From the NCBI GenBank assembly GCA_951804945.1, contig OX638153.1, positions 19,406,001 to 19,470,000 on the forward strand: a stretch of DNA of 64,000 nucleotides, written 5' to 3'. Under the pieces are notes generated by a model. That model was not told where the DNA came from and made no database searches. It saw nothing but the letters and a program-made list of their open reading frames with translations. Both the position numbers and the translations under genes were made by a program. Source of the stretch: Podarcis cretensis (lineage: Eukaryota). The first letter of the stretch is position 1. Each line of letters opens with the position of its first letter. This document shows positions 6,044 to 64,000 of the stretch, in pieces.

Positions 6044-6419
6044 TTATTATTTATACCCTGCCCATCTGGCTGAGTTTCCCCAGCCACTCTGGGTGGCTTC
6101 CAATCGAGTGTTAAAAACAATACAGCATTAAATATTAAAAACTTCCCTAAACAGGGCTGCCTTCAGATGTCTTTTAAAGAGAAGATAGCTGCTTATTTCC
6201 TTCACATCTGGTGGGAGGATGTTCCACAGGGTGGGCGCCACTACTGAGAAGGCCCTCTGTCTGGTTCCCTGTAACCTCACTTCTTGCAATGAGGGAACTG
6301 TCAGAAGGCCCTCGGCACTGGATCTCAGTGTCTGGGCTGAACGATGGGGGTGGAGACGCTCCTTCAGGTATACAGGACCGAGGCCGTTTAGGGCTTTAAA
6401 GGTCAGCACCAACACTTTG
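6011..6419 (-). mobile_element. L2-clade LINE 3' fragment with (AAT)n-type tail
   Basis: ORF 6128-6415 (LVLTFKALNGLGPVYLKERL...RAFSVVAPTLWN...) is close to the C-terminus of ORF 19509-20192; shared 3'UTR and trinucleotide tail. Confidence 0.9.
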
Positions 6420-6583
6420 AAGGATAGTTTTACTGTTCTGTTGAATTTATTTCAAAGTTTACTATCTATTTCCCACTTTGTCCATTTGCTCATTAACAAT
6501 TGAAGAACGTGATACTAGTGAAGGCGACTAAATTGGCCATCCTTTTCTGCCTTCTGTCTCAAAGTTATCCCACCATTATCTTG

Positions 6584-6799
6584 ATGGCGTCCATTCAGAT
6601 GTTGAGTAGATTTAAGTTAGCTTATCCTTATATAAGTTGCAAGGAACTCAAGATATCTCCTGAATTCCTTTTAGGACATGTGTTTGAGATCATGGCGTCC
6701 ATTCAGATGTTGAGTATATTTAAGTTAGCTTATCCTTATATAAGTTGCAAGGAACTCAAGATATCTCCTGAATTCCTTTTAGGACATGTGTTTGAGATC
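6584..6799. repeat. 108-bp tandem duplication (2 copies, 1 mismatch)
   Basis: atggcgtccattcagatgttgagta...gtgtttgagatc starts at 6584 and at 6692. Confidence 0.95.
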
Positions 6800-7568
6800 A
6801 GACTGGTACCAGGGTTAAGAAAGTTCATAATGGTCTCCTGCCATGTTACGTTATCAGTTAGTGAAAACTATTCAAGATACTGCTGAGAGGGTGATTAAAT
6901 TTGGAGAAAGGTAGCAGTGCTGGCTTTCCACTGACACCTTTCTGATATTGAAATTTACAGGGAATAATTGCCTGGTTCAGATGTGGTCGTCTCCCTTTCA
7001 TAACACACAATTTTCTGGCCCAGGAACCAGCTATGTGTCCACTTGCCCCATTCCTCTGGCACCTCCCCTCAAAGGCCCAGATTCAGCAAAGTTATCATGG
7101 TTTCTTAAACTGTGATGTCTGAACCAGAAAATTGTGGTTTATGGCCCCCTCCAAACCAGGGTCCAATCCTGGTTTCATAGTTTGGTTTGGAAGGGCTCTT
7201 TAAATTAATTTGTAAGTACAGACATCCCAGGAGACTTGACAATGATACCATGGTTTCTTAAGCAAAACTCAGGTGCCTAAGAGCACTAGGAAAGGGCAAG
7301 GAGCTGCAGAGGAGCTGCAGAGGTCGATGGCACACTACAGTTTCTCTGCTCAATATTATTGTGTGTCTGAATCAAGCCAGTTAGACATGTTTTGGCAAAC
7401 TATACCATCAATTTGTTAAGAGACACCAAACTTTCAAGGAGCAAGTTTTGTTTTATTAGTATTGCATCAGTTATGTACTGATAATTAATATAAGCAAAAA
7501 GATAAACCCCTGCCCCAAGGAGCTACAATCTGAATGTTTGACAATGGAGATCATGAAGGGTGGAAATA

Positions 7569-7808
7569 CAATGGTACCTTGGGTTAAGAACTTAATTCGT
7601 TCTGGAGATCCATTCTTAACCTGAAACTGTTCTTAACCTGAAGCACCACTTTAGCTTAACCTGAAGCACCACCACTTAACCTGAAGCCGCCGTGCCACCA
7701 CCGTGCGATTTCTGTTCTCATCCTGAAGCAAAGTTCTTAACCTGAGGTACTATTTCTGGGTTAGCGGAGTCTGTAACCTGAAGCGTCTGTAACCCCGGGG
7801 TACCACTG
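7569..7808 (+). mobile_element. Tc1/mariner (Tigger/pogo-like) MITE, family A
   Basis: TIR ca(a)tggtacc...gggtaccactg with flanking TA; internal taacctgaagc repeats shared with 4 other copies. Confidence 0.9.
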
Positions 7809-8999
7809 TACAGGCTTGCATGCCATGAAGGTGAGCAGATGCTGCTTTTAATTTAGGTGCATTTGACTGCTGCTGCTGCTGCTATTTATTAAGTTTATAT
7901 ATCACCCTATACCTGTAGATCTCAGGGTGGTTTACATAATAAAAACAGCCCAATCAAGCCCCCTAGGTTTTATTGGTATGAAGCCAAATGCTGGCAGCAT
8001 TTATGAGTTTTCAGATATCTGATGGGGGGGGGGGAAAGAGGTGGGAAATGTGAACTGTGTACCTAGGATGGAGTTTTAGGCAGCAAGGGAGAATGGATGG
8101 CACCAATTAAAAGAGTGTGAGACTTTTGGGTAGCTGAGGAGGGCTGAGTTGGAAGTGTGGAGGTCATACACAGGAGAATACTGGAAAATAAAGGAGAAAA
8201 GATAGCGAGATGAAAGGCCTCAGGGAAGAGGCCTCAGCTGGTATAAAGGCAGCTTCCTGTGGTCTGAGATTTAGGCCCGGATCCAAGCAACTTGGTGCAC
8301 TAGCGGAAGCCAGTACAAGGGCTGTCTGCTAGCTCAGTGGGGCTTCCTCCATCCTTCCCCTGTGTGCCCCACACTTTCCCCAATGCACCATGATGGCAAG
8401 TTCATGTTCAGCAATAACCTTCCAGCATGTGGCAACTTCTTTTCTTGCCCCCCTTTTTTAAAAATGTAGACCTGCTTTCCAAGTTTGCTATAATGTGTAT
8501 ATAGCATTGCATGACTTAAATGGAAAATAGGAGTGTCACATGGATTTAAATTAATCTACTGATGGGAAGTAGTGCTGAGCACATTTCTTACGTCCTTGTA
8601 GAATTCATGTCTTCAGATAATTAGCTGCTTTTCTTAAGAAGCCGTTTGTTTGACATAAGCTGTCATTAATAAGATGTCTTCTGTCTGACATGGTGTCTTC
8701 CACATGTGGTTGTCATGACAGCATTCTGCACTTGCAAACTTTGAGGATGTGGGTCTTGGGCTCTTACTGGCTTATGATACGTCCCCTAGGCCTTATTTCC
8801 TGTCCATTCCCTGGAGTCTAATTGTTATTGCCATTTTAAGTAATAACGGATTATCAGACCAGATTAAGGCTGTGCAAACTTTCTTGAATGTGTAGTAAAT
8901 TGTACAGTTGTTTTGAGGGTTGAAGCAGAAAGAAAGGGGTTGGGGGAATCTCTCATCCTGGTCACTCACTCTGGATCAGGGTTAACTTTTTCAAACTCT

Positions 9000-13549: not shown

Positions 13550-13721
13550 NNNNNNNNNNNNNNNNNNNNNNNNNNNNNNNNNNNNNNNNNNNNNNNNNNN
13601 NNNNNNNNNNNNNNNNNNNNNNNNNNNNNNNNNNNNNNNNNNNNNNNNNNNNNNNNNNNNNNNNNNNNNNNNNNNNNNNNNNNNNNNNNNNNNNNNNNNN
13701 NNNNNNNNNNNNNNNNNNNNN
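13550..13721. other. Assembly gap (N run)
   Basis: Direct reading. Confidence 1.
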
Positions 13722-14936: not shown

Positions 14937-15755
14937 TGTTATAAGAAAATACTGCTCCTTTTCTCTTTATGGGGTACCCAAGAGCCCGTATAGAGTTACT
15001 ATGTAGGTTCCCTATTGGTAGGAGAAAATAACAGAGGCCAAGCAGAGAATATTGAGAAGCAAAGCAGCTAGTATTCCTGATCTTTATTAAATTGTTGCAA
15101 CAGGGTGCTCACCCCCCCCCACGCAGGAGGGAGGAGGAACCCAGAACAATGGTGTGCAAGCCCTTATACAGTGGTACCTCGGGTTTACACACGCTTCAGG
15201 TTACATACGCTTCAGGTTACAGACTCCGCTAACCCAGAAATAGTACCTTGGGTTAAGAACTTTGCTTCAGGATGAGAAAAGAAATCGTGCTCCGGCAGCG
15301 CGGCAGCAGCAGGAGGCCCCATTAGCTAAAGTGGTGCTTCAGGTTAAGAACAGTTTCAGGTTAAAAATGGACCTCCGGAACGAATTAAGTACTTAACCCG
15401 AGGTACCACTGTATAGACTTTTGAAATTGCCCCCCTGTAGGTCAAGACCACCCCTTAATACATCATACATATATCACAGAAGGGGCGGTCTACAGCAGAA
15501 TCATGTCTGGCAGGAAACCTGGTTTCCTGGCTGTTAATGGGTTTACCTGGACAGCCTGGCCATTCTTTTGTGATGATAAATACTTAATTCCTACAGGCTC
15601 ACCCTATTCATACACTAATGTACCCTTAAGGCAGGATGGTGATGACTGTTCTCCTGTACTATTTCAGACACATAGTTTATATACTTATGTATATGTTTGC
15701 CTGGTACATTTATGAACATTTATTTTATATCTTAGACCTTACAATTCTCATAACA
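14937..15755 (-). mobile_element. Solo LTR (about 574 bp after removing the nested MITE)
   Basis: TG...CA termini with an 11-bp inverted end (tgttataagaa/ttctcataaca); 4-bp TSD ggtt (14933-14936, 15756-15759); minus-strand TATATAA reconstructed across the MITE and AATAAA about 80 bp downstream (near 15083-15088). Confidence 0.8.
15169..15411 (-). mobile_element. Tc1/mariner MITE, family A, nested in the LTR
   Basis: TIR cagtggtacctcgggtt...aacccgaggtaccactg; TA TSD. Confidence 0.93.
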
Positions 15756-16278: not shown

Positions 16279-16683
16279 ACTCCAGAAAAATTTCCAGTGC
16301 AATGTGGAGTTTTTCTGATGCAAATTACTGTAATCTGCATGATAAGTTTTGCAATTATTTCCCTCAGAAAACTGACATCACTGATTATTTGCAGTATAGT
16401 TTAATAGCAAGCATGTGTGTAGATACAAGATCTAACAGTGTACAGAGGAGAATATTCTGCTTTGTAGAGCTGCCTCAGTAAAAAAGACAAGTATGTCTCA
16501 TAATTGCTTACCTTTCACTAGATGGTGCAAACTTGTTTTCTAAAACCATTTAATTGGTTGCTTTTTTTACATTGTTTTGCTTAACTTCTTTTCAGCTTTA
16601 TCATCATCATCATCATCTACAAGTTTAGTTTTGTTGGTTTCTATTTTTAGTAAAATATTTTCTTCTTCCAAATTGACTATTCC

Positions 16684-16836
16684 CAGTGGCGTAGCGTGGG
16701 GGGTGCAGGGGGGGCCAGCCGCACCGGGCGCAACATCTGGGGGTTAGGGTTAGGGTTAGGGGGCGCAAATCCACGGGTTAGGGGGCGCAAATTACTTGCC
16801 TTGCCCTGGGTGCTGACAACCCACGCTACGCCACTG
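16684..16836 (+). mobile_element. hAT MITE containing TTAGGG repeats (copy 1)
   Basis: Perfect 17-bp TIR cagtggcgtagcgtggg/cccacgctacgccactg; 8-bp TSD actattcc; internal (TTAGGG)3 plus 1. Confidence 0.93.
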
Positions 16837-18456
16837 ACTATTCCTTTTCATAATTTGATTTCAGCATCTGTGGAAAGACAGAGAGGTATTTCATTTATAA
16901 AATTTACTATTTTCCACCAAGAAGTCAGCTTATGGTATGGCACCTTTCTGTGGAGTTGGCTGGGATGAAGGGTGAACTCAAAGAGGAGATCAAAACAAAT
17001 ACCAGAGTAAACTGGCAAATTTTGGGTGCCTGTCAGATTCTACAATTGCAGCAGAAGAGTGTGCATCAGGATGCAATTGCACAGCGCTGATAGCCATGTT
17101 AGTGATACAGTGGAGGGTCCCATCCAAGTGTGTACCACCTAACCCAATTTAGAGATGACTGTGTCACAGAAGAACACAAGTACCACCGGTTGAAATCAGC
17201 CAGGGAATATATGTTTCCTGTGGCCAAGTTTAGCACTTGCTTGTTAGTTATTGTAAAGATCAAATGACAGCCTTTTTTGCAAGGTTAGGTCAGGAGGGCA
17301 TAAATGGATGGAAAGTGGGACAACTATCTGGAGGTTTAAGGAAAAATAAATAGAGCCGGTTTGCTAAGAGCAAATACTGATAAGGCAGGTTGTGTTGGAA
17401 CACAGCTCATTTACCGGCTGGATGGAATACATAGCCAGGTAGCTATGGTCTGTGGGATTGCCCTGGTCTAGTCTTTTTGTTGAGCTGTTGTTCTGTCGCT
17501 CTATAATTTAATAACAAATAAGGCATTTGAAAAGTAACCTCTACTTTAAAAAATTGTAATTAAACCATTATAAAAGAGCACTAAAAGTAATAATATGTCA
17601 GAGTAGTAAAGAACAGAGACAAGTAAGCTGATTCCAAAAGTAACTGTTTTCTAGGGGTCTCCAATCCCTTTCCTGAAGCTTTACAGTATACAGTGCCGGA
17701 AAATATGGGTGCCCCTTCTTGCAGCAGAAAATGCAATGGACTTGGTGGTAGCATTGTCTTCTGCCAACTGCATGACTTCTTACACCTTTGTTTTCTGCTT
17801 CCACCTGAAGCCTCTACTCCTGTTTCTAGACAAGATTTGCTTGTATTGGGCACTTCCAGTCTGGATTGAAATGGGTTGAGAATTTTCTACTTTGCGAAGC
17901 AGTGCTTTGACGTTTTTAAAAACCTAATCAGCTTGTAAAAGTTTGAGATGAAGGTGCTTGACGGTTTGGAGGACAGCCTTCTGAAGGTTTCACAGAATAT
18001 TTGCCCAAGCTGCCAAGCAAACCCAGTTGAGTGATTGGTATGATCAGTTGCCACTAAAAAGTGATGGCTACAAAACTAGAAATAAGTTCCTAAGCTGAAC
18101 TCTTTTCTTTTCTTTTTTCTTTTTTTTAGGGAGGAAAGTTTTTCAGTGTCTGTGAGCAGTATAACTTATGACATCAGTAGAGAGCTGTGAATATATGTGT
18201 GCTCTCTTTCTTTGCACATGGTAGAGTGTCAAACTGGCTGAACTTTCCATACCCTTCAATATGGTTGGCATCCCGGCTGCTTAGTCACACGCTCATTTTG
18301 AAAAACTAGGTTGTTGCCTCCTCAATTTTTCAATAAGAAACAGAGTTACTGAGGTCCCATGGATGCAAAGGGCAACAGCCACAATAAGAGGGAGCAGAAG
18401 TTGCTTCAAATTTGTTGCTTCAGAGCTACTAGCTGAACTCTGTAGTCTTCTACTGG

Positions 18457-18460
<4 letters not shown>

Positions 18461-18502
<42 letters not shown>
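18461..18502. repeat. (CT)n microsatellite
   Basis: Direct reading. Confidence 0.98.
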
Positions 18503-18503
<1 letters not shown>

Positions 18504-18983
18504 GCTCTGCAATCATTATATATCAGAAGGTGATGCAACTTTGAGTATGTCTTAACTTCCCTCCCATTTACAGATCAACAGTGCTGTGTAAATACTGCCC
18601 TTCAAGGCAAATAAGTAAACAACACTACTCTTTCCCTTCCGGTTTACTTTCTCCAAGTGGGAACCAGTTCAAAACCGCTTGAACTGTGGTGTGCCTGAAG
18701 AATAGTGGTACTTCGTTACAGAGATGCGCTTGCATTTCTACCAATACTCATGCTTGTTCTTGAAATAGTGGTGAAAAGAATTTGGGCTAAGTATGTGTGG
18801 CTTCACAAGACCCTCTCCCCTACTGTGGTTTCCAGTGACTTGTATCCAGAAGCGTTGCTACCTCTTAACTGTGGAGGCAGAGCATGGCCATCATGGCTAG
18901 TAGCCATTGATAGCAGTCTGCTCTGTGAGTTGTCTAATTCTCTTTTGAATCTGTAGTTCAACTATGTGTTGTGTGAAGAAGTA

Positions 18984-19238
18984 CTGTATTTTTCGCTCCA
19001 TAAGATGCACTTTCCCTCCTAAAAAGTAAGGGGAAATGTGTGTGCGTCTTATGGAGCGAATGCGGGCTGCACAGCTATCCCAGAAGCCAGAACAGCAAGA
19101 GGGATCGCTGCTTTCGCTGCACAGGGATCCCTCTTGTTGTTCTGGCTTGTGAGATTCAGAATAGTTTTTTTCTTGTTTTCCTCCTCCAAAAACTAGGTGC
19201 GTCTTATGGTCTGGTGCATCTTATAGAGCGAAAAATAC
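18984..19238. mobile_element. Tc1/mariner Tc2-like MITE (CCGTATTTTTCGC-type termini)
   Basis: ta-ctgtatttttcgctccataagatgcac...gtgcatcttatagagcgaaaaatac inverted ends; single internal hairpin. Confidence 0.8.
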
Positions 19239-19368
19239 TTTCTTTTACCCATCCTGAATCTTCCTTCCAACTCTCAGATTCATTGGATGTCCATGAGTTC
19301 TAGTGTTATGAGAGACGGAGAAAAGCTTTTCTTTGTCCACTATTCCCATGCCATGCATAATTTTATAA

Positions 19369-19369
<1 letters not shown>

Positions 19370-19427
<58 letters not shown>

Positions 19428-20295
19428 TTATTATTACCCCGCCCATCTGGCTGGGATTCCCCAGCCACTCTGGGCGGCTTCCAACTGAATAATAAAAAAA
19501 ATACAGCATTAGACATTAAAAACTTCCCTAAAGAGGGCTGCCTTCAGTTGTCTTTTAAAAGTAAAATAGTTGTTTATTGCCTTGACATCTGCTGGGAGGG
19601 TGTTCCACAGGGCAGGCGCCACTACTGAGAACGCCCTCTGTCTGGTTCCCTGTAGCCTCACTTTTCGCAATGAGGGAACCACCAGAAGGCCCTTGGCGAT
19701 GGACCTCAGTGTCCGGGCTGAACGATGGGGGTGGAGACGCTCCTTCAGGTATACAGGACCGAGGTCGTTTAGGGCTTTAAAGGTCAGCACCAACACTTTG
19801 AATTGTGCTCGGAAATGTACTGGGAGCCAATGCAGATCTCTCAGAACCAGTGTTATGTGGTCCCGGCGGCCACTCCCAGTCACCAGTCTAGCTGCCGCAT
19901 TCTGGATTAATTGCAGTTTCTGGGTCACCTTCAAAGGTAGCCCCACGTAGAGCGCACTGCAGTAGTCCAAGCAGGAGATAACTAGAGCATGCACCACTCT
20001 GGTGAGACAGTCCGCGGGCAGGTAGGGTCTTAGCATGAGTACCAGGTGGAGCTGGTAGACAGCTGCCCTGGACACAGATTTGACCTGTGCCTCCATGGAC
20101 AGCTGTGAGTCCAAAATGACTCCCAGGCTGCGCACCTGCTCCTTCAGGGGCACAGTTACCCCATTCAGGACCAGGGAATCCCCCACACCCACCCGCCCCC
20201 TGTCCCCCTAAAACAGTACTTCTGTCTTGTCAGGATTCAACCTCAATCTGTTAGCTACCATCCATCCTCCAACCGCCTCCAGGCACTCACACAGG
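19370..20295 (-). mobile_element. L2-clade LINE, 5'-truncated, with the C-terminal 227 aa of ORF2 open
   Basis: ORF 19509-20192 has RSLGVILDSQLSM...HALVISCLDYC...LQLIQNAAARLV...LHWLPV...RAFSVVAPALWNTLP, diagnostic of L2; (AAT)n/(AAG)n tail. Confidence 0.93.
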
Positions 20296-21499
20296 ATATG
20301 TCACCTCTTACAATTTCTCTAGAAAGTCCCAAATGTTGCAACTTTTCTTCACAGTGGAGTCGCTCCATCTCCTTTATCATTTTGGTTGCCCTTTTTGATT
20401 TTTTCCCCTAACTCCTATAATATCTTCTTTGAAGTGAGGCAATCAGAGCTGTACATAGTATTCCACATGTGGTCACACCATAGATTTGTATAATGACATT
20501 ATGATACTGGCAGTTTTATTTTCAATTCCTTTCCTAATGGTCTCAAGCATGGAATTTGCCTTCTTCCCAGCTGCCACACACTGGGTCAACATCTACATTG
20601 AGCTATATAAGCTGAAGTCTGGATATTAGCTAAGAATTTAAATACATCTGTGCCATCAGTTATAACACACAGTTAACTATCTCTGGACGATTTCTTGCTT
20701 TGATTGTTGAAGGTTAAAATCATGCATATTTTTCATTCACGTTTCAAATGTTATGCTCAAGCGTATTCAAAAATGGAAATCCATAGTTGATCTGCATTGT
20801 AAAAAATAACTGGTAAATATGTAACAAGAAGGCAGAAGGGGAGAGTGCCACCATTATCCAATAAATTTAGCAGTGCAATAAATACCGTAAATAAGATTGC
20901 CCTGCTGAAAACTTTAGATTCGGTAGAAAAGAGAACAGGCTAATTCTGTTCCCTAATTAGTCTTAAGCAAATTAATTTTGGCTCCTTCTGCAGTCCTAAA
21001 ATAAATCATTCACCTCTCATCTGTTCTCGTTTTCCTTTGGAACTGTAGAATCAGCAACTGTGTGTACGTGGAAGAAAATTATAAAGCAAATAAAAAAATG
21101 CCACACAAAGTGCTTGGCTTATGGCTTTCGCTGGCTCTCTCTCCCCCCCCCCCCCAAGTGGCTCTGCTAGTATTGTCACAAGTCTTAGCTTTTATATAAC
21201 CATTTTTCTGGGTGTTTGGATGACCTACCCTGGAAAGTAGGTGGATATTTATTCTTATCCCCATATTACAGGTGGGCAGCTGAGAGATGTGTCAAGGGGG
21301 GCTGGATGCTAGAGAAGATCCCGATGACAACAACAAATGGTCATTGGTGAACTCCTGTTGTGTTACGATGCTACCATGCCCTTTACTCCCAAGAGATTGT
21401 AGCTTTGTAGGATTCCCACATTTGGTTAGCTTCAAAGGTAGAACTGCGTCAGATGCCTTCTAGCTATTTTGCAGCAGTTGCCGCATCCATCCTAGACTA

Positions 21500-21741
21500 C
21501 AGTGGTACATCTGGTTACGTACTTAATTCGTTCCAGAGGTCCGTTCTTAACCTGAAACTGTTCTTAACCCGAAGCACCACGTTAGCTAATGGGGCCTCCT
21601 GCTGCTGCCGCGCCGCCGGAGCACGATTTCTGTTCTCATCCTGAAGCAAAGTTCTTAACCTGAGGTACTATTTCTGGGTTAGCGGAGTCTGTAACCTGAA
21701 GCATATGTAACCTGAAGCGTATGTAACCCGAGGTACCACTG
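21500..21741 (+). mobile_element. Tc1/mariner MITE, family A
   Basis: TIR cagtggtac...gtaccactg; TA TSD. Confidence 0.93.
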
Positions 21742-22830
21742 TATTGGTATCCTTAATGGTGCAGGAAGGTCTATCAGGCTGTTCAGGTGACCCTGTAAAA
21801 TTGGTGTACTAATTATTTGGATCTACTGGATATGAGTTGGCTGTAGTTGAACTACCAAATATGCACTTAAATTCTCATCCTGTACAAAGTTGAAAAGGTC
21901 TCTGAATGTCCTTCTAATGTATTTACTGGGGAAATGTGTTTGAGCTGGAATTAAATGGATTCCCTATCTGTCACTGACTGTCTCTACTATAGACAGAAAG
22001 ATCTGATGAGGAATATCTGTCGGTGTCAGGAAGAATAGGTGATAACTTTTATTAAATTATGTAGTCTCGGCTAATCTGTTCATACAGCTATGTCTGTTAG
22101 AAGCGACAAACTAATATGTCATCAAACTTGACAGCCCCCTTAGTTGACTGTACAAACGTGAAGCAAACTGTCATTTAAATACTTTGGAAGTGATGAGTTT
22201 GAGATAAAAGAAATGTATTCCTCAAGCTGCAGTTCAGAAAGTGTGTGTGTTTGCAAGTGAGAGAAAGAGAATGCTAAAGTGGATTTGAGTTACAAAGTTG
22301 GGTGAGTGGGGCATAAATGCACAACTTTTCTATATTTTTTGTGTTTTCTGCTAAAGGACGGTTGTGGAGCTGAATTTTGCCCCTAACAAATGTTGGCATT
22401 CATGAGGATTCCTTAAAGCCAAGAGTATATATATATATTTAAAAATACCATTTTATGCTGCGTTTATGGTGTGTTTTAAAGCATATCAGAAACAAAACAT
22501 GACGAGGGAGTTCCCCCCTGCCTGACCCAAAAAATAAAAAGAGGACTGTGATGGTGGTCAGAGGGGGAAGAGAGGCATATAAAGGGGGTAGCAAGAGATG
22601 AAGATGAACACAAAGAAACATTTATTTGTAAATTTCAGGGATTTAATGGAAGATGGGGAGAGAGGTGACATTTGAAGCATGAAGTTTCAAGCACAAGTGG
22701 GGAGGGAGAGCAAGGGAGAATGGGAAGGAAGCTTCTAAGTGAACAGGAGATATCCAGGAGGCTCAGAGTAGTAGAGATGAGTGGAATGAGGTGAGCCATT
22801 GGTGCTTCCATTGTGTTGAAATAAAAGAAG

Positions 22831-23296
22831 CAGCTTTTTTGGGCAAGAACTCTGGGGGAACGGAGTTCCCTTACCTTTAAAAAAATTAATTTTTATTTTT
22901 TTGTCTGAGGGTGTTCAAACTGATATACGCCCAATGCCCGAGGCACAAATACACCTCTGTCTGTAAACAATGAAGTTGTGGCCATTTCTAATCCAAATCA
23001 ATGCTTGAGTTTATTAGTCACATCTTACATTTCGACACCGTCAAGGGTGGGTGGGTGGCACTGTGACTGGTCCTGCAATAAACAAACAAGCAAACTTTGT
23101 TGTGAGTTTCCCCAGTGGCGTAGCGTGGGTTGTCAGCACCCGGGGCAAGGCAAGTAATTTGCACCCCCCTAACCCGTGGATTTGCGCCCCCTAACCCTAA
23201 CCCCCATATGTTGCGCCCAGTGCGGTTGGCCCCCCCTGCACCCCCCACGCTACGCCACTGAGTTTCCCCCACCTTTTTTCCAGAAAAAAAGCACTG
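22831..23296. mobile_element. Older CAGTGCTTTTTT-type hAT MITE hosting the TTAGGG MITE
   Basis: cagctttttt...ggaacggagttccc at the left end and gagtttccccc accttttttccagaaaaaaagcactg at the right end, resembling 5374-5511. Confidence 0.55.
23113..23260 (-). mobile_element. hAT MITE containing TTAGGG repeats (copy 2)
   Basis: Perfect 17-bp TIR; 8-bp TSD agtttccc; (CCCTAA)2 plus 1 on the + strand. Confidence 0.93.
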
Positions 23297-24469
23297 AATA
23301 CAAGTATTTGACACATGCTTGGATAATGGGTGGTCATAGACATTTTTATTTTCAGGTGATCAGAATAGGAAAATTGTGGATTCTAACTTGAGTTTCTAGG
23401 TAACGAACTGTGTTCTAGGAGTAAGATAAAATATTTTCATATTTTTGCTCCCAGTCTGTAGTAGAATATAGCAGGGCTGATTTTTGCCAAGGGCACATTG
23501 CAGAGCAGATTTGCATTACAAGTCTGGTGGTTGAGTTTTTAAAATCTGATTTGTTTCTAAAAGAATGAGTCTCCTGCAGTAGGAAACCTCAAACCTCCCC
23601 ACTCCTATTTCCTCAAGCTTCATGGATATTCCATATATTTTGAGAGATGAGTCATAGGGTGAAGGAGCCTGGAAAGCAATGAGTACTGATTGCCTCTTTA
23701 GCCCCAGCCAATAATTGCTTGATCCAACTGCCACCCATTTAGAGTGACTTTAATTCTCACCAAAATGAGGAGCTAATAGCACTGCCTTAAGCCAAGGCAG
23801 ATGCTGGGCAAGTTTCCTCAAGTATTCGGCCAATGCTTCGCTCTCTTCTTCTTTTGGCCCGTAATAGCCATGTTGTTATGTTTCTGGCTCCTGTCTTCAT
23901 TGTGTCTGCCAGCTGTGCCAAACCATGCCGTAGGTTTGTATAACTGGTCGATTACATTGTGGCTGAAGAAATATATTTCCACTGTTCGGTTCCAGCTCCC
24001 AAACATAACACCTTTTGGCTTCCAGGGAGAAAGTTGACTATTGTACTTCTACTTGCTGAGTTGAATAACCATCGCTATCGGGGGAAACCCAATTATTTTA
24101 AACCTTTCTGTGATCAGATTTGTTGCCGTATACATTTCAATCTGAATTTGGGTCAAACCAGGCACTGCCATCAGCTAGCCTTCACTCGCCTACCTCCTTA
24201 GTTACAACCCATCCATCCAAAGGGCGACACAGCTTCCTCCTTCTTGGTGTTGCCTTTATAGAATTCAGCAGCGAGGAGGATGGGAGCAAAACCAGAATTA
24301 GTTGGCTCTGCATAACAGTGACTCTGGCTCTGCTACTTTTGGCATTCACGCCCTCTGCCCTACCACCAATGTTAGAAAATTGGATATATAAGCTAATTGC
24401 CAAATGGCTCCTTAAACCTAGGTTATGGCTGCCACAAAAGAATGTCCAGGTGCCTTTTTGCAGTTGAAT

Positions 24470-24640
24470 TTATCATTATCATCATTATCAATCATTTCAT
24501 TTCTATACTGTTTTATACAGGAAAAAAAATCTCAAAACGGTTTACAGTACATTAAAACATCCAATAAAACAATCCAGAATAAAACAAATTCAAGCTTCAA
24601 GGAATTTTTTTCCAGATCTTTCTCTAAGTGACATTTTGCT
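24470..24640 (-). repeat. Short dispersed repeat (copy 2 of 9340-9507)
   Basis: Shared sequence ending gtgacattttgctt; (ATC/ATT)n tail. Confidence 0.75.
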
Positions 24641-24697
24641 TCCGTCATATTTATTTGCCTACTTAATCTATGCCCCATAGCAGAAGTACTCTAGGAA

Positions 24698-25030
24698 GCC
24701 AGTGTGGTGTAGTGGTTGCAGCGGTTCTCAACCTGTGGGTCCCCAGATGTTGTTGGACTACAACTCCCATCATCCCTGAGCTCTGGCCTTGCTAGCTAGG
24801 GGTGATGGGAGTTGTAGTCCAACAACATCTGGGGACCCACAGGTTGAGAAAGGCTGGAGAGTGTCGGACTAGGATCTGGGAGATCAGGGTTGAAATCCCC
24901 ACTCAGTCACAAAGCTCACTGGGTGACCTTGGGCTGGTCACAGCCTCGTAGCCTACCTCACAGGTTAACTGAGGAGGGGGGTGAACCATGTACTCCTTGG
25001 AGAAAAAGGTGGGTTTATAAAAGCAATAAA
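24698..25030 (+). mobile_element. MIR/CORE-type SINE interrupted by a palindromic MITE
   Basis: gccagtgtggtgtagtggtt|gagtgtcggactagg...agggttgaaatcccc...gggtgaccttgggctggtcac...A-rich tail. Confidence 0.75.
24719..24856. mobile_element. Palindromic hAT-type MITE (ggactacaactcccatca family)
   Basis: Near-perfect foldback with arms of about 60 bp; no clear TSD. Confidence 0.85.
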
Positions 25031-25114
25031 TAAGTTTTTCTGCTTACCTGCTTAAGAAAGCTGGAGGGGCCAGCCAGATGGAGATGTCGCCAACCTGGTA
25101 TCCAGAGATTTCCA

Positions 25115-25261
25115 CAGTGGTGTAGTGTGGGGGGTGCAGGGGGGGCCGGCCGCACCGCGCGCAACATCTGGGGGTTAGGGTTAGGGGGCGCAAATCCATG
25201 GGTTAGGGGGCGCAAATTGCTCGCCTTGCCCCGGGTGCTGACAACCCACGCTACGCCACTG
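25115..25261 (+). mobile_element. hAT MITE containing TTAGGG repeats (copy 3)
   Basis: TIR with 2 CpG-to-TpG changes on the left; 8-bp TSD gatttcca; (TTAGGG)2 plus 1. Confidence 0.93.
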
Positions 25262-27205
25262 GATTTCCATGATCTAAATTTCTGACATTACGTATATAGG
25301 TTCCATAGGGAATGGTTCTCTATATACACTCTATCCCTGTGTTTGAAAGAGCTACATCTCTTCCTTTGGAAGTTAGCAGCGACAAGCTTTTCAAGTTAAA
25401 ACGAGTTGCAGTGAGGTCCGTGCTCCTTTGCCAAAATGGAAACAGCAGTTATTTAAAGGATAAAATGAGTTTACCTTGTCCAGAACTCCTTGGAGGAAGA
25501 GCACAGCAAAAATATAATAAATAATAAAACTACAACATTATGAAACCTCAAAATGCAGGACTTGAGATAAGAGTGGGATTGTGTGTGCCTTCCCTCTCTT
25601 AATTACCAGAAGTCCTGGAAATTTAAGGGAGCCTTACTTTTCCGATCAGTGGAAAATCTGCAGAGCAAAAGGTTTAAAATGTTCACAAATTCATCAGAAT
25701 CTTCCTTAGTTTGCATATATTTTGCAATTCCTTCGTCTGTTATTTTTCTGGGGAAAGAAAGTTTGAAAGTTTCTTTCAAAATTCAGAATGAAAAGGGTAT
25801 TTCCTGTGTTTGTTCTCTATGTGCTTATGTGTATGTTCACCTCTTCCCCCTACTCCAAAGTCTGATTTTGGAATTAGGGGGAGTGACACTTGGCTTAAAT
25901 ACTCACTGTTTGTTTTATTTAATTATCTTGTTCTTCCTTGTGTGTTAAATTGGAATACAGCCAAACAGCTAATGTTGTATTAAGTTATTGCTCTATTATT
26001 TTGTTCAAGGAACAGCAAGCCTGTCTTCCGTGGAGAAATGGGGCCACTTATTTTTCATCCATGGCCTGTCTGTAGAAGTTGTCATGAGTTAATGTGACAT
26101 TTTTCTTCTTCTGTCCCCCCCCCTCCCCCGATGCTTTTTCTCTTATTAAAAATTACAGCAAAGAGCTGATCCAGATTAGGAAGGAACGGCACATCCGTGA
26201 AGTATCTAACATAATAAAATTAATGTTAACATATAAGATCAGGACCATTAAGATCCTAAGGTAATTAGAGATTGAATTAGCCTTGAATTGCATCTGATTT
26301 CATCTGTTTGAGATGGAAGACAAAGGAATAGTATAATAACTGAGCAGACCAGGCTTTTTAAGGTCAAGTTTTTCCTGTAGGGGAAAAGGAGGTGGGGGGA
26401 GAAGGAAGATGAGAATAAGATTTTGCTTTGTTTCTTTCTTTTATGGAGCTTGCTGTTCAGTCTCATGAAAGATTAATCAGACTGGCTACAAGGATAGAGA
26501 ATCTCTGTTGCGGTGCCATCACAAAATGGTGGGTTGGGACCTGGGAATGTTTGGGTGTTTAAGAAATTCAGTTTCTGTTAATTCCAAAGCAAAGCAGCCT
26601 TTCACACACCTCCTGAAACTAGCATGCAGATTGGAACAAAATTATCCATCAGCTTTTGCATATCTCCAGATTTTGTGATACAATTCCCACCTAAAAATTA
26701 AAAATCCACATTTTTAAGAATAAAATACATTTTTGGAAATTTGTGTATTTAGATTATATAGTTATATAAATACTATTGTGTGTTGTAATATGTGTGTCAA
26801 TACATATTAAAATAGGGATTTTCATATAGCTTTTTTAAAATAAAAAAACTCGGATTACTGTTGAAACAGGATCGAAGTAATTTATGAGTGAAGACATACA
26901 AAAGTGATTCAGACTGGAAATAGATTTATCCATAATAGCAACTGGCCATAATCACACCAGAAAAGTGTTTTGTTTTTTAAGTGCCAGTGAAGCAGCAAAA
27001 GGGAAAAGTTGGTTTGGAAAGTTGGTGGAGAAGAATTGTCCCCCACGTATATAATAACTGCTTAGAAGATTACAGGAAGAACATTCAGTTGAATCAGATG
27101 AACTGGGATACATTTTCCATATACAACACGTGTACATACACAAAGTCCTGATCTTTGAAGTGCGGTGTGTATACCAGAATGCATTTGACATAATTTAGGG
27201 CATCA

Positions 27206-29153: not shown

Positions 29154-30179
29154 TACTCTTTTAGATGTGTGTTCAGGGAAATTTGTGAACAATTTGGTGT
29201 GCTTCCCATTTGTTAGTTGAAATGTTGACAGTGCAATGTTGACAAACAATAGTGTCGGTATTGTAGGGTATTTGTTAACTCTCACATTCTTGCTTATTTG
29301 TTTTATAATAATTTGCTAGTTTTAAAATTTCAGCATAATGTTCTATGCCACAAATGCCTTAAATTTACCCAGGAACAGATCTCAGCAGAGTTCTTCCAAG
29401 TTTCACTACTTTTTTCTGGTCTGTAGCAGTTTAATTGTGGAGGGAAAGGCAGATAAACCTTGACTTTAGTGCTCTGATAGATCCATGCAGAAATTCCCTA
29501 TGTTCCGTTAAGGGCTGTCAAGGAAGCCCAGTTAGGGAAGTTCATAATACTTCATTGGTTATTAGAGACAATCTATCGAATTCTCTTTACAGGACTTCTG
29601 TTTCCTTAATTTATTCCCGACTCACTATATTGTTCTGCAAAGTCTTTCACAGAGCTTCATGAGCTGGATCTTTCCTGCCCTGGTGTTCCCCCAGGTCTCC
29701 CCCAGCAGGAATGGATGCAAACTGCCTGCTGAGCAATAGGTTTGCAGATAAAATAATGCCAAGGGTACTGTTTGTGAGAACTTGAAGGGGTTCCTGCCTG
29801 TCCCCACACGCTGACTGAATCCAGATGATCGACTTGCTCACCTTGCTGTGGCTTGTCACAATAACTGCACAGTGGTCTTCACATTTGGCAAGGCTGCTGA
29901 AAGGCCTGAACGTTTGATTGGCTCCAAGGCTGTCACGCTTTTTGACAAGCTGCATTTTTGAAGCTCACAAGAAATTTGATTGACCCTGGAGACTGTTCCT
30001 TTAACTCCCAAATTACATTCCACAAAAGGACTGCTAGCTTACTACAAGAAAGCAGGAAAATTCCATGAGTCTGAGGCTTTCGACTGTCTCTGCATGACCC
30101 CCTATTCTGGTTGTATTACCTCCTGGTTAGCCTCTACACTGCATGGCATTGGATTATTCAATCACTCCAAATACAGATA

Positions 30180-30388
30180 CAGTGGTACCTCGGGTTAAGT
30201 ACTTAATTCGTTCTGGAGGTCCGTTCTTAACCTGAAACTGTTCTTAAACTGAAGCACCACTTTAGCTAATGGGGCCTCCTGCTGCTGCTGCGCCGCCAGA
30301 GCACAATTTCTGTTCTCATCCTGGGTTAGCGGAGTCTGTAACCTGAAGCGTATGTAACCTGAAGCGTATGTAACCTGAGGTATCACTG
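30180..30388 (+). mobile_element. Tc1/mariner MITE, family A (internal deletion)
   Basis: TIRs and TA TSD; lacks the aagcaaagttcttaacctgaggtactatttctg segment present in other copies. Confidence 0.92.
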
Positions 30389-32004
30389 TAATGGCTTGTC
30401 CACAGAGGGAGCTGCCGGTTGTTGTTGTGCACTAATCACTGCCCTGATCTTTCCACTTTCTAGTTAGATTGATGCAGCTGGTTTAGAAAACTGTGTAGAA
30501 ATTTGCAATGGGCAGACACTTCTGTGAGCAGATTACTTTTGCCCTAAAGGTTTGCAAGTGTATGTGTGAAGGATATCTCCAGTTTGGGTGGTGGCAATTC
30601 ACTTGTGGAACTCTACTATAGAGGCATACTGGGTGCCTAGTCTTTTATCCTTTTTGCATGTGTAGTCTAATATATTTTTAGAGTTAATTACAACTGATTT
30701 ATTTTAGTTTGAGTTTTCTTTAGTTATTGGGTTGCAGGTCATTTTATGGTTTTATCTTAATTGTAAGCCATCTGGGAATTCTGTTTGTACTGCATATTGG
30801 GAAATAAATTTAAAAAGTGTGCCATAAGTATCAGACTTTTGGAAACACTACTTTAGTTGATCTGCTTTCCCATGAAACATGCAGGGGTTTTTTAAGTGGG
30901 AAAGGAACTAGGTAAAAAGAAATGAAGCCCAGTGAATGAAATAAATGTTTTGTGTATTTTGCCGGAACCCCCACCCTTTTCCTATTCATTAGGTATATTT
31001 GCTTTGCTGATTTGATTACTCTTTATAATATTTTTAAAATTATTTTTTAAATACATGATCGTATGTGCACACTCATAGAGAACCGTATAGAATTCTACAA
31101 CTTAGTTTGTGTTGTTATTGTATATCTACAATTTTATATTACTGGTTTCTATTTTATTTTTTTCAAAATAAAAAAAATACTGGTTGCTGTCTTACATTCC
31201 TTATCTATCTGTCAGTGCCTTGTTTTTTACCTTCCTCTTCCCTATTCACAATATTTCCATCTTGCCTCTTTTAATTTTTCACTCTGTCTTTCTCTGATGG
31301 CTTTACTTTATTCCTTCTGCCCTATGTGCTCTCATCTAGGCTATCTTACATCACCGTTAGTTTCCCCCAATTCTGTCTCCTTCAGTCCTATGGCTATTCT
31401 TTCTTTCACAAAGTCTGCAGCAGTTGTGAATGGGTTGGTGCATGTTTCGAGATTTATTGAGCTGTCAAAACAACTGTTGGCCTCCCTGTGGTCTAATTTT
31501 TCTCAAGTAATGCATCTCCCCCCATAGATCCTCCATGTTCCCCATCTATTCTGAAACACTGCCAACTTCATTTGTTCCTCTGCACATGTTCAGAAATATG
31601 GAACTGCACAACCCACACTTTCAGACAACAACGCTATCTCTTTCTCCCCTTTAAAAAAAAAAATGCACTATCTTGAACTGGTAGTCATTAAATAACAGTT
31701 TTGTCTCTTGTGGCATTGACTTAGTGGAATGCGAGCGAGGCAGACATTCCACTCAGGCATTCTTTGTCTCCCCACAATGCATCTTGAGGCCCTGCTTGGT
31801 GTCACACCCTTTCCTCTCAGGCTAGGTGTCCTCTGCTCGCGCCTGCATGCTGCCTTTAATTGCCATCATTTGTCCCCAGCATCTTACAGCTGGGCATGCA
31901 CACAGCTAAACTATTCCTCTCTCATTTAGGTTCTTTTAAATATGAACCTTCTCTCCCCCTGCCCAGCACCTGCCTCCTCCCGAAACACGCTTTATTGTCA
32001 TTAT

Positions 32005-35385: not shown

Positions 35386-35736
35386 CAAAAGACCTTATAG
35401 GCCTCTTTATAGGCCTTCCAATGTGAGGTTGTCTAGAATGCTGCCTGTAGAGTTCTGAAGAGCCCTGGGTTTGGTTTTGTCCTACTAGTGGGCCTCCTGA
35501 GAATATCTGGTTGGCCTGCTTAGCTTTCCAAATGTGCTCGCAGTGTTATTGCTGCACCACAAACTACTACTCCCCCCCCCTTTCTCTTGCAGCTTCTTCG
35601 TACTGCTCACATTTTCTCATTACCTGTAAACATAAACAAGAAAGCTCTACTGAGATTGGCATTGCTACCTCGGCAAGTGTGGAAGCGAAAGTCTATTACC
35701 AGTTAATGTTTGGAGTAATTATTACTGCAAAAGTTA

Positions 35737-36336
35737 CTGTATTTTTCGCCCTATAGGACGCACTTTTCCCCCTCCAAAAATGAAGGGGAAATCTGGGTGC
35801 GTCCTATGGGGCAAATACAGGCTTTCGCTGAAGCTTGGAGAGTGAGAGGGGTCGGTGCGCACCAACCCCTCTCACTCTCCAGGCTTCAGGAAGACATCCG
35901 CAGCTTAGGCAGCCCTGCGGGAGTTCCCGCAGGGCTGTCTAGGCTGCGGATAGCAGCTTGCTTCCCGGAGTGAGGGGTGCCCTGAAGCAGAGCGCCCCCC
36001 GCGCCGGGCAGACATCCGCAGCGTGGGGAGCCCTGCAGGAGTTCCCCGCAGGGCTCCCCTCGCTGCGGATAGCAGCCTGCTGCCCGGCGGGCAGGGCGCG
36101 CTGAAGCAGAGCGCCCCGCGCGCCAGGCAGACATTGGCCAGCCCCACAAGCTTGGGGGACAGCAGGGAGGCGCAGCGCCGCCATCCCGCTGTTCCTCGAC
36201 CTGGTTCGCTTTCCCCGACCTGGTTTTGGAGGGGAAATAAAGGAAAAAATTATTCCTTTATTCCCCCCCCCCAAAAAAAAAAAAAAAACTAGGTGCGTTC
36301 TATGGGACGGAGCATCCTATGGGACAAAAAATACGG
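35737..36336. mobile_element. Tc2-like MITE with GC-rich internal hairpin repeats
   Basis: ta-ctgtatttttcgccctatagg...cctatgggacaaaaaatacgg-ta. Confidence 0.88.
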
Positions 36337-37586
36337 TAAGTTTTAACTAGTGTAACTCAGAAAGTGTATGGAGTCTTGGATGCATTGTCTTAGTGAATTG
36401 TCCTAAGGAGATGGGGAGAGAAAGGTGGAAGGAAAGAGCTTGACAATTTACTGTGATCAAAATTAAGTCTCATTCAGTTAAGCGTGTGAATTTGTTATTT
36501 GTTCTGCCACTTTTGGTAGCCAAAAGTCTGTTTCCAAATATGGAAAACTTGTGTTTGCAAATACATGTGTCATACAGGTAAACTCATCAGACAGCCCAGG
36601 TTGGCCGCAGCTCCACACAGAGTGTGCACGTCTTGACAGACCCAAGTCTGCTGTCACATAATGTATAAAATGACTTTCAGTGTGGTTGAGTATTCAACTC
36701 TTGTTAGCCCTGCATTGAAAGGTTCATGTGTATGTGCTCTTGGCTGGGTTAATTGCGTCAAACAAAAATTTCCATTCCACCTCTTGTATCTTGAGCCCAC
36801 AAGTGTCCCCCCCCCCTTTCCCTTCCTGCCAAAAATAAATTCATGCCTCCTGGGTTTGTGCTCTGTGTACTGCGCTATGCAATATCTACCCAGTGAGATG
36901 CTCCAGTGGAAACTGCATTAATGATTGATAAAACCTGAGAGCTGGTTTAATTCTCTCCCCCTCCCCTGTTTAATGGCTATCAATAATTTAATGCACTTAC
37001 TGTGAGTTTTTTAAGAAATGGTACCCACACTTAAAAAAACACACACAAAAACCTGACCTGGATTTAAACAGGCTCAGAGATTTAATGATTAAAATGCTCT
37101 TTGGGAGGGACTTGATGGACCAACCACTGTCCCTCTTTGTGAACACTAAATCTAAAACATTTAATAGAAATATTTTAACCAAAAATAATACACCCCCCTA
37201 GTTCCACGATCTTGCAAAATAATGTTCTGAATTGCAAAACAAAAACAAAAACAGTTATAGAGGTAAACAAAGGTCTGTGCTAGCCATAACTTCTAGCTTT
37301 ATAATGGAAAGTGTTGTCATAAGCCCTAACAACAGGAATACCCAACAAAATACCATTCCATGGGTGACATTTGTTTTTTGGTCTATCCTGCTCTGCCATG
37401 TATTCTCTTAGAGGCCTAATGTTTTGAAATCACTTTGTTTCGTTTCGTTCTTTGGTAGTTTGAACCATAATGCCTGCTGTGTTTTTTCCTTTCCCCCTTT
37501 CCTTCAAAGGAAATGCTCTTGGACCCCATTCATATGTAGCATTCCTTTACTGTTATAGATACCACTCCCCCAATAATTATTATAAT

Positions 37587-44107: not shown

Positions 44108-44502
44108 CACCACAGTCTCATGTATAGGTGGGTGATGGCATTTTGGCTGTAAAGTAACTGACACTTGGAGAATTGAGGTCACTTTATGTATATATGATGG
44201 TGTGTGGCCAGCCCTTTAATTCACATCACATTTGATTTTACCATTTATAGTTTATGTTGCTTGGATCTAAATTGTGGGTGTTGTTTAACAGAATCATCTT
44301 TATTCTGACCCAGGTTTTCAACACTAAATAGAAAAGGGTGACTACTTTGTCAAGGCATATCTGCATGACAAACTTAACCTAGTTTAATACTCCCTTGTCA
44401 TGGCTGGATCACTTCCTATTGAGATTTAGGCTTTCAGAGGCTTTTTTTTCTCCATAGAGGTGGGGGACCTAGAGGCTGATAGTTCTGATTGGTTTGCAGA
44501 TA

Positions 44503-44743
44503 TAGTGGTACCTCAGTTTACGAACTTAATCCGTTCCTGAAGTCCATTCTTAAACCAGATCCATTCTTAAACCGAGCCGCGCTTTCCCTAATGAGGCCTC
44601 ACGCCGCCAGTGCCCTTCCACCATTCAGTTTCCGTTTGTAGACTGAGGTAAAGTTTGCAAACCAGAACACTATTTCCAGTTTTGTGGAGTTCGTAAACTG
44701 AATAGTTCATAAACAGGACTGTTTGTAAACTGAGGTACCACTG
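44503..44743. mobile_element. Tc1/mariner MITE, family C
   Basis: ta-tagtggtacctcagtttacgaac...gtttgtaaactgaggtaccactg-ta. Confidence 0.88.
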
Positions 44744-44779
44744 TATCTCTCTGGGATTTTCTAGCCCAGTGCTTCTCAA

Positions 44780-45095
44780 AGAGCCTAGGACTTGCCGATC
44801 AGAAGGTCAGCGGTTCAAATCACCGCAACGGGGTGAGCTCCTGTTGCTTGGTCCCTGCTCCTGCTAGCAGTTTGAAAGCACGTCAAAGTGCAAGTAGATA
44901 AATAGTTACCGCTCCAGTGGGAAACAGTGTTTCCATGCGCTGCTCTGGTTCGCCAGAAGGGCTTAGTCATGCTGGCCACATGATCTGGAAGCTGTAAGCC
45001 GGCTCCCTCGGCCAATAAAGCAAGATGAGCGCCGCAACGCCAGAGTCGGCCACGACTGGACCTAATGGTCAGGGGTCCCTTTACCTTTACCTTTA
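44780..45095 (+). mobile_element. Sauria SINE, 5'-truncated
   Basis: gagcctaggacttgccgatcagaaggtc...gtgcaagtagataaatag...ggggtccctttacctttacctt. Confidence 0.88.
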
Positions 45096-51259: not shown

Positions 51260-51396
51260 CAGGCATAGGCAAACTCCAGCCCTCCAGATGTTTGGGACTA
51301 CAACTCCCATCATCCCTGACCACTAGTCCTGTTAGCTAGGGATGGTGGGAATTGTAGTCCCAAAACATCTGGAGGGCCGGAGTTTGCCTGTGCCTG
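51260..51396. mobile_element. Palindromic hAT MITE
   Basis: caggcataggcaaactcc...ggagtttgcctgtgcctg; perfect 8-bp TSD caatagac. Confidence 0.92.
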
Positions 51397-55374: not shown

Positions 55375-55645
55375 CAGGGGTATCGCTAACCTGTTGCCCT
55401 CCAGATGTTGGACTAAAACTCCCATCATCTTTGAACTCTGGTCATGCTGGCTGGGACTGATGGAGTCCAACATCTAGATCAGGCTTCCTCAAACTCGGTC
55501 CTCCAGATGGTTTGAGACTACAATTCCCATCACCCCTGACCACTGGTCCTGCTAGCTAGGGATCATGGGAGTTGTAGCCCAAAAACATCTGGAGGGCCGA
55601 GTTTGAGGAAGCCTGATCTAGATGACCATAGATTGGCTACCTCTG
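55375..55645. mobile_element. Older palindromic hAT MITE hosting a younger relative
   Basis: caggggtatcgctaacctg...ccagatgttggact...aacatctaga|tgaccatagattggctacctctg. Confidence 0.7.
55480..55615. mobile_element. Palindromic hAT MITE, nested
   Basis: caggcttcctcaaactcgg...ccgagtttgaggaagcctg; perfect 8-bp TSD atctagat. Confidence 0.93.
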
Positions 55646-57520: not shown

Positions 57521-58139
57521 CCATATTTTTTGCCCCATAGGACGCACTTTTTCCTCTCCACAAATGAATGGGAAATGTGTGTGCGTCCTATGGGGCGAAT
57601 GCAGGCTTTCTCTGAAGCCTAGAGAGCAAGAGGGGTCAGTGCGCACCGACCCCTCTCACTCTCCAGGCTTCAGGAAGCTATCCGCAAGCCTTGGGAGCCC
57701 GCGGGAGTTCCCGCCGGGCTCCCAAGGTTTGCAGACAGCAGCCTGCAGCCCGAAACCCGGGGAGCGCAGGGGAGCGCACCCCGGGCTTCAGGCAGCTCTC
57801 CGCAAGCCTTAGGAGCCCGGCGAGAGTTCCTGCTGGGCTTCCCAGGCTTGCAGATAGCAGCCTGCATCCCGAAGCCTGGGGCACGCTGAGCAGTGCACCC
57901 TGGGCTTCGGGCAGATACCTGCAAGCCTGGGGAGCCCCGTGGGAACTTCCTGCGGGGCTCCCAAGGCTTGCGGATAGCAGCCTGTTCTGGGGGCTGGGGT
58001 CGGGGAAAGCTCGGGCTTTCCCCGCCCCAGCCCTGCGCCTGGGGGGGAAATAATTTTTTTTCTTTATCCCCCCCCCCAAAAAAAAACCACACTAGGGGCA
58101 CCCTATGGGCTGGTGCGCCCTATAGGACGAAAAATACGG
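57521..58139. mobile_element. Tc2-like MITE with about 118-bp GC-rich hairpin repeats
   Basis: ta-ccatattttttgccccataggacgcac...cctataggacgaaaaatacgg-ta; units start near 57667, 57785 and 57904. Confidence 0.9.
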
Positions 58140-63517: not shown

Positions 63518-63726
63518 CAGTGGTACCTCGGGTTACAGACACTTCAGGTTACAGACTCCGCTAAACCAGAAATAGTACCTCAGGTTAAGAACTTTGTTTC
63601 AGGATGAGAACAGAAATCATGCAGCGGCAGGCCCCATTAGCTAAAGTGGTGCTTCAGGTTAAGAACAGTTTCAGGTTAAGAATGGACCTCCAGAATGAAT
63701 TAAGTTCTTAACCCGAGGTACCACTG
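63518..63726 (-). mobile_element. Tc1/mariner MITE, family A
   Basis: Perfect TIR cagtggtacctcgggtta/taacccgaggtaccactg; TA TSD. Confidence 0.93.
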
Positions 63727-64000
63727 TAATAAGTTTCACTCTTAGCAGCTCAGTATGACTGACAGCTGCTCTCCAGGATCCCAATAGCTCAGGTTCTGTT
63801 GAACTGGAATTGCTGAAGACTGAAGCAGTTGTAGGACCTTCTGAATGTAGAGCATGTGTTCAATCCCTAAGCTGTGAGCATTGCATGTTGGCTGCAATGA
63901 ATACTCATTAGTGTCTTCCATAATGAAGTTGGCACCAGCTAGCCACAAAGACCCTCACAGTGATGGAGTGCTTACAGATTCCAAGAAATGGGTACCTCAG

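Follow-up and report, generated by a model that had tools for sequence, protein, structure and literature searches.

A short hAT-type transposon of Podarcis lizards carrying two or three TTAGGG units, probably an incidental likeness to telomeres

The 64,000-bp stretch of Podarcis cretensis DNA analyzed here (contig OX638153.1, positions 19,406,001 to 19,470,000; hereafter the window) contains three insertions of a short DNA transposon whose interior holds two or three tandem units of the vertebrate telomere hexamer TTAGGG. We consider it fairly probable that the element is a ~147-bp non-autonomous hAT MITE (a miniature transposable element with inverted repeats) of lacertid lizards, in which the TTAGGG units form a hitchhiking microsatellite and the likeness to telomeres is incidental. 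The three copies and their parts, with positions in the window and the strand in parentheses, are as follows.

16684..16836 (+): MITE copy 1, 153 bp, with three TTAGGG units (n=3)
16676..16683: left 8-bp target site duplication (TSD) of copy 1, ACTATTCC
16837..16844: right 8-bp TSD of copy 1
16684..16700 (+): left 17-bp terminal inverted repeat (TIR) of copy 1
16820..16836 (-): right 17-bp TIR of copy 1
16726..16737 (+): first, diverged GGGCGCAA motif of copy 1, start of internal unit A
16741..16761 (+): (GGGTTA)3GGG 21-mer of copy 1, which comprises TTAGGG three times, the YTAGGGTTR half-site twice and a canonical G-quadruplex (G4) motif
16753..16792 (+): 18-bp exact direct repeat of copy 1 at a lag of 22 (16753-16770 and 16775-16792), each GGGTTA plus a GGCGCAAAT motif
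16796..16806 (-): two GGCAA motifs of copy 1 near its right end, facing inward, which may be subterminal transposase sites
23113..23260 (-): MITE copy 2, 148 bp, n=2, with one additional G
23105-23112 and 23261-23268: TSD of copy 2, AGTTTCCC
23189..23200 (-): (TTAGGG)2 of copy 2
25115..25261 (+): MITE copy 3, 147 bp, n=2
25107-25114 and 25262-25269: TSD of copy 3, GATTTCCA
25175..25186 (+): (TTAGGG)2 of copy 3

All three copies are flanked by perfect 8-bp direct repeats, the sequence of which differs from copy to copy; an 8-bp match is expected by chance with a probability of about 1.8e-5 per site. These TSDs identify the whole MITE as the unit that was inserted at the three window loci. The TIR is 17 bp long and begins with CAGTG, and a pattern built from it (up to three mismatches allowed) matched six times in the window against 0.05 expected, a number reached in none of 100 shuffles. 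The original prediction, made from the letters of this stretch, had placed three insertions at these coordinates and in these orientations, each with its own perfect TSD, and the check agreed with it throughout. It had also assigned the 17-bp TIR to each copy, which is exact at five of the six ends, whereas the left TIR of copy 3 carries two C>T transitions at CpG sites. Self-BLAST detected no further full or substantial partial copies in the window. That three copies cluster within 8.6 kb is of borderline significance (P about 0.049, calculated post hoc). Differing flanks and TSDs, and a distance of 3.4-7.5% between copies, led to the rejection of segmental duplication or an assembly artefact; nor is a very recent local hop supported, for which near-identical copies would be expected. 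The three TSDs have T3, T5 and C7 in common when read on the + strand, which would fit a target preference, with too few sites to judge.

hAT elements are recognized by an 8-bp TSD, a YARNG terminus and TIRs of 10-25 bp (PMC3014272 and PMC3942097). The element has all three hallmarks: the 8-bp TSD, a CAGTG start that fits YARNG and the 17-bp TIR. It is likewise short (147-153 bp), bounded by TIRs and non-coding, the overlapping open reading frames (ORFs) of at least 78 amino acids having no Pfam match, as expected of a MITE. An AT-rich interior, which is counted among MITE features (PMC3942097) and is typical though not universal, is not found here, the GC content of the three copies being 65-67%. 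None of the 137 ORFs of at least 78 amino acids in the window encodes a transposase domain. No sign of a structured-RNA or tRNA origin of the element was found either, and its predicted fold consists of the TIR stem only.

The TSDs of the three copies show neither the central TA of the Buster/Charlie group (0/3) nor the T2/A7 of the Ac/hobo group (0/3), the latter being weak evidence from three sites only. The GC-rich termini, in turn, are ones that we take to resemble those of mammalian hAT-Tip100 elements, such as Arthur1. The pattern exclusion and this presumed likeness of the termini would point to the Tip group, an assignment that is only a lead. The hAT Tip (Tip100) group itself is delimited by transposase phylogeny and shares the 8-bp TSD and the short TIR with the element (PMC3942097).

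In their 8-bp TSD, YARNG terminus, short TIR, lack of coding capacity and divergence of a few percent, the Anolis families hAT-N1_AC to hAT-N8_AC (Novick et al., PMC3014272) are similar to the element, and hAT-N1_AC, at 135 bp, is close to it in size. However, none of the Anolis TIRs displayed in that paper equals the present one, the two that start with CAGTGG belonging to other families, and the central-TA TSD pattern described for Anolis families is, like T2/A7, missing from the three copies. The string 'telomer' is absent from the same paper. A variable-copy repeat in the interior, spread by transposition, has precedents in the insect (GTCY)n MITEs, Xenopus Xstir and the MITEs of the clam Donax, and two reviews list MITEs with microsatellites or tandem repeats (PMC6947457 and PMC5615363). 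Unlike the (GTCY)n, Xstir and Donax elements, the present one repeats the vertebrate telomere hexamer, in an array of just two or three units. MITEs with microsatellites are therefore already known, and what this family adds is the vertebrate telomere hexamer as passenger. Neither a vertebrate MITE with TTAGGG nor this family was found in the literature searched, which covered titles and the starts of abstracts, with Repbase, Dfam and most subscription journals lying outside. For the repeats of Podarcis lilfordi, coverage was reported as 6% with Repbase and 33% with an automatic library (PMC10214862), and other lacertid elements have been described (PMC10058329). An abundant family like this one is probably present in automatic repeat libraries, whether described or not.

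Evidence for the family outside the window came from protein databases. A reverse-frame profile of the element, run against longer proteins, gave a single hit among 1494 candidates (E 6.7e-25), a Podarcis muralis UniRef gene model named elongation factor 1-delta, in which residues 23-71 represent a fourth full-length copy. This copy is as long as an n=2 element, and a single substitution, which turns Pro into His in translation, affects its hexamer region. Its flanks permit an 8-bp TSD on back-translation, as do those of 17/165 control tripeptides, which makes this a weak indication. The protein is read as a gene-prediction read-through of the MITE. With a full-length copy in P. muralis, the family is dispersed past the window and occurs in Podarcis. 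As the element is open in some frames, it is able to contaminate gene annotations. No more copies were recovered with the forward-frame profile (0/6276 candidates) or the third-frame profile (0/25), the ESM Atlas search gave no usable hit, and a representative protein library returned five weak hits (E about 1e-4 to 1e-3), four with several short stretches and one spanning the full length. Prokaryotic genomes, screened as a source of stray lizard DNA, had no hit to the 3' end pattern, and a plasmid search for the element found no match. The single prokaryotic hit to the paired-TIR pattern (L001 960-1200) was rejected as an unrelated bacterial repeat with short direct and inverted repeats. The count is thus three copies in 64 kb plus one in a P. 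muralis gene model, and the element is probably an abundant lacertid non-autonomous hAT family.

The three window copies differ pairwise at 5, 8 and 11 of 147 columns (3.4-7.5%). After one CpG position is restored, the copies carry 2, 5 and 6 substitutions, of which CpG transitions make up 8/13, and non-CpG divergence among the three copies is about 1.4%. This pattern of low non-CpG divergence and CpG transitions fits a young, methylated and neutrally decaying family. Together with the 8-bp TSD and the 17-bp CAGTG TIR, it sustains the original description of a young hAT MITE family.

Tandem TTAGGG units number three in copy 1 and two each in copies 2 and 3, and every copy has one further single hexamer downstream of the array. 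As had been predicted, the element carries TTAGGG units wherever it is inserted, and n differs by whole units. Such whole-unit changes are no sign of telomerase, as slippage produces them in any hexamer. With about two units in the mutated P. muralis copy, n is 3, 2, 2 and about 2, never exceeding three in 4/4 copies; this distribution rests on four copies, and a long tail of n is compatible with so small a sample. The hexamer itself is not enriched in the window (43 occurrences versus 39.8 expected, with 34/100 shuffles reaching 43).

The interior of the element consists of about 2.5 copies of a ~22-bp unit, in which a G-run follows a spacer ending in GGGTTA. Of these, units B and C stand out clearly: copies 1 and 3 repeat the 18-bp stretch of GGGTTA, G-run and GCGCAAAT exactly, at a lag of 22 bp, and copy 2 does so over 11 bp. 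Unit A, upstream of the array, equals unit B at 17/21 columns, the terminal GGGTTA included, and its homology to the other internal units is likely. Its anchored GGGCGCAA.ATC pattern, picked after inspection, occurred in 6/20000 shuffles. The TTAGGG units sit in this internal repeat between GGCGCAA-type motifs, which recur inverted near the right end. Subterminal transposase sites of hAT elements usually take the form of short motifs that recur from each end toward the interior. The three copies contain 5, 4 and 4 SGCAA motifs, both strands counted, versus about 1.3-1.5 expected (reached in 8, 103 and 195 of 5000 shuffles), and the GCAA motifs may serve as such sites.

Under the hitchhiking explanation, a hAT transposase encoded elsewhere would bind the 17-bp TIRs and probably the GGCGCAA/GGCAA motifs too, both the enzyme and its binding being taken from hAT biology, and the element would be excised and reinserted with an 8-bp duplication. 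We infer that this enzyme was Tip-like. We also infer an origin of the hexamer array by slippage, which in a founder would have doubled the GGGTTA of unit A to give (TTAGGG)2; a further slip would have produced n=3 in copy 1 or its subfamily, n=2 being the state of 3/4 copies. Amplification would then have scattered 12-18 bp motifs genome-wide in copies that decay neutrally and mostly at CpG, the pattern observed among the window copies. A side effect would be many single TRF half-sites and, where n=3, a sequence that could adopt a telomeric G4 fold in single-stranded form.

Several points weigh against this explanation. It draws on four copies only, and an autonomous partner was not found; binding to the motifs is a prediction. 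An unanchored local alignment of the left and right interior was not significant (798/2000 shuffles), which leaves the homology of unit A resting on the post-hoc anchored test. Furthermore, (TTAGGG)2 appeared in 0-1 of 20000 interior shuffles per copy; it is improbable from composition, and one specific duplication or insertion event is needed. Lastly, 0/7 TTAGGG units in the window tandem arrays are substituted, where few changes are expected in units without CpG.

The event that shuffling calls for could have been a telomerase capture, in which the founder acquired a short telomeric insertion during double-strand break repair, for instance at an excision or gap-repair break, and a second GGGTTA by junction duplication; the element would then be a transposon-amplified short interstitial telomeric sequence (ITS) without function. 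The almost complete failure of shuffling to yield (TTAGGG)2 suits this origin, and a junction duplication would explain the 18-bp repeat just as well. Indeed, short ITS are held to form in one step at breaks, some of them in transposons, and those termed s-ITS and TERC-ITS resemble the present arrays in having a few perfect TTAGGG copies at internal positions (PMC8537989). However, unit A already resembles unit B to either side of one GGGTTA, and one slippage event suffices for two units. The telomerase-RNA-derived flank of TERC-ITS (PMC8537989) is also lacking: no Rfam telomerase RNA match was obtained for the whole window at the gathering score or, with E values of up to 10 admitted, for the region of copy 1. 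Whereas s-ITS were inserted singly at breaks, here one array was copied by transposition, and the same study concluded that transposons did not disseminate TERC-ITS (PMC8537989). An earlier s-ITS search used a threshold of four units, and the n=2-3 of the element fits 'a few' units and falls below four (PMC8537989). On balance, we regard telomerase capture as unlikely.

A more consequential alternative is that the element actively seeds telomeric DNA, its copies lengthening by slippage or telomerase into true ITS arrays and/or attracting TRF1/TRF2, ZBTB48 or proteins that bind G4 to a large number of places, where chromatin or breakage would be affected. The numbers that speak for it are those of the tandem motif. 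All three loci with at least two tandem TTAGGG units in the window lie inside the element, against 0.007 expected. About 105 (TTAGGG)2 per Gb are expected by chance (second-order Markov model, slippage ignored), compared with a local element density of 3 per 64 kb, for which the 95% interval is about 10-137 per Mb and which the choice of window biases upward. Apart from any seeding, and even at a small fraction of this density, the family would supply most perfect two- and three-unit motifs, which is the part of the original prediction that we hold to be probably true, and it may be the main genome-wide source of very short telomeric motifs.

TRF1 and TRF2 bind as dimers, requiring two half-sites. 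The element holds four of the five YTAGGGTTR half-sites in the window, two of them in copy 1 and one each in copies 2 and 3, which means that 2/3 window copies offer a single half-site, against recruitment. The 21-mer (GGGTTA)3GGG folds as a G4 in vitro, and its exact occurrence in copy 1 favors seeding. The many G-runs on one strand that the original prediction pointed out are real, but a canonical four-tract G4 motif (loops of up to 7) was present in only one of the three copies, copy 1, and the n=2 copies fit the G4 pattern only if loops of up to 12 nt are allowed. The window as a whole has 7 canonical G4 motifs and 30 regions with a G4Hunter score of at least 1.75, of which 6 are in the element and 24 outside it, a further point against a special role of the MITE. 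Published maps of TRF2 binding differ, with fewer than 200 sites in two early studies versus more than 20,000 in a later one, and thousands of extra-telomeric TRF2 sites were tied to G4 motifs in one chromatin immunoprecipitation study, which favors seeding (PMC6879327). ZBTB48 binds TTAGGG plus variant repeats (PMC5452029). PMC6356271 yielded no information on half-sites.

ITS origin is an open question in squamates, and a squamate-wide ITS study names transposons as a possible factor (PMC4529230). In lacertids, in contrast, fluorescence in situ hybridization (FISH) has revealed blocks, either centromeric or W-linked, and signals on the arms in 2/15 species studied (PMC7290949), an observation that bears on long arrays only. 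Short ITS are hardly visible by FISH, and arrays of 12-18 bp are not expected to show (PMC8537989); accordingly, the element alone does not explain the squamate ITS of PMC4529230. With n of at most three in 4/4 copies, active seeding receives little credence from us. The stronger form of a transposon route to ITS appears similarly doubtful: the family would supply most short lacertid TTAGGG arrays, some copies would reach at least four units, and those with n of at least three would fold into telomeric G4 and be bound by TRF1/TRF2 in vivo, and shelterin-responsive sites specific to the lineage would number in the thousands. What little evidence there is leans toward incidental TTAGGG over seeding, given n of at most three in all four copies, the mutated hexamer in P. 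muralis, the place of GGGTTA within a ~22-bp repeat and the single half-site in two of the three window copies.

That TTAGGG is the element's own cis-signal, bound by a host telomere-repeat or G4-binding protein or by the transposase and explaining the element's success by raising transposition, is very improbable: the hexamers of the three window copies are intact and do alternate with candidate subterminal motifs, but their number is not constant, the hexamer region of the P. muralis copy carries a mutation, and binding and transposition are conjectural.

On the hitchhiking explanation, the likely reading is that of one more lizard MITE. Anyone calling ITS from very short telomeric motifs in assemblies or reads of lacertids should first mask this family. 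Thousands of dated copies would also constitute a natural experiment on the growth or decay of TTAGGG arrays away from telomeres. If the transposon route to ITS were true, interstitial telomeric DNA would have transposition as a source besides break repair and chromosome fusion.

Other repeats were observed in the window. A palindromic hAT MITE of ~136 bp is present at 55480-55615 and 51260-51396, the 55480 copy having a perfect 8-bp TSD (ATCTAGAT) of the Buster/Charlie type. A related palindromic 138-bp MITE at 24719-24856, 260 bp from copy 3, has a left end like the Anolis hAT-N1_AC TIR, and a clean TSD was not seen. The host sequence of its insertion is presumably a tRNA-derived short interspersed element (SINE), and a SINE at 44780-45089 is one that we take to resemble the lacertid Sauria SINE, as would befit a lacertid host. 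A TIR family with a variable interior occurs at about 35735-36340, 57520-58145 and 18982-19240, two copies having GC-rich, partly palindromic 119-bp tandem units and the third being short. We assume it to be probably of the Tc1/mariner type; it is the second case here of tandem repeats riding in a DNA transposon. In addition, a TA-flanked TIR element of ~250 bp with a variable 16-bp internal tandem repeat has about six copies, located as follows.

15166-15414: ~250-bp TIR element
21498-21747: ~250-bp TIR element
30177-30398: ~250-bp TIR element
7566-7810: ~250-bp TIR element
63514-63728: ~250-bp TIR element
44500-44746: ~250-bp TIR element

No host gene was found among the 137 ORFs of at least 78 amino acids or by a crude exon scan, which exons in shorter ORFs could escape. 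The only Pfam hit above cut-off in the window was the endonuclease of a long interspersed element (LINE) at 1-765. Further LINE fragments lie at 6044-6451 and 19425-20207, both being 3' ends that are mutually 89% identical. The window also includes an N gap of 172 bases (13550-13721) and, at 6584-6800, a near-perfect (99%) 108-bp tandem duplication, which could be either recent or an assembly artefact.

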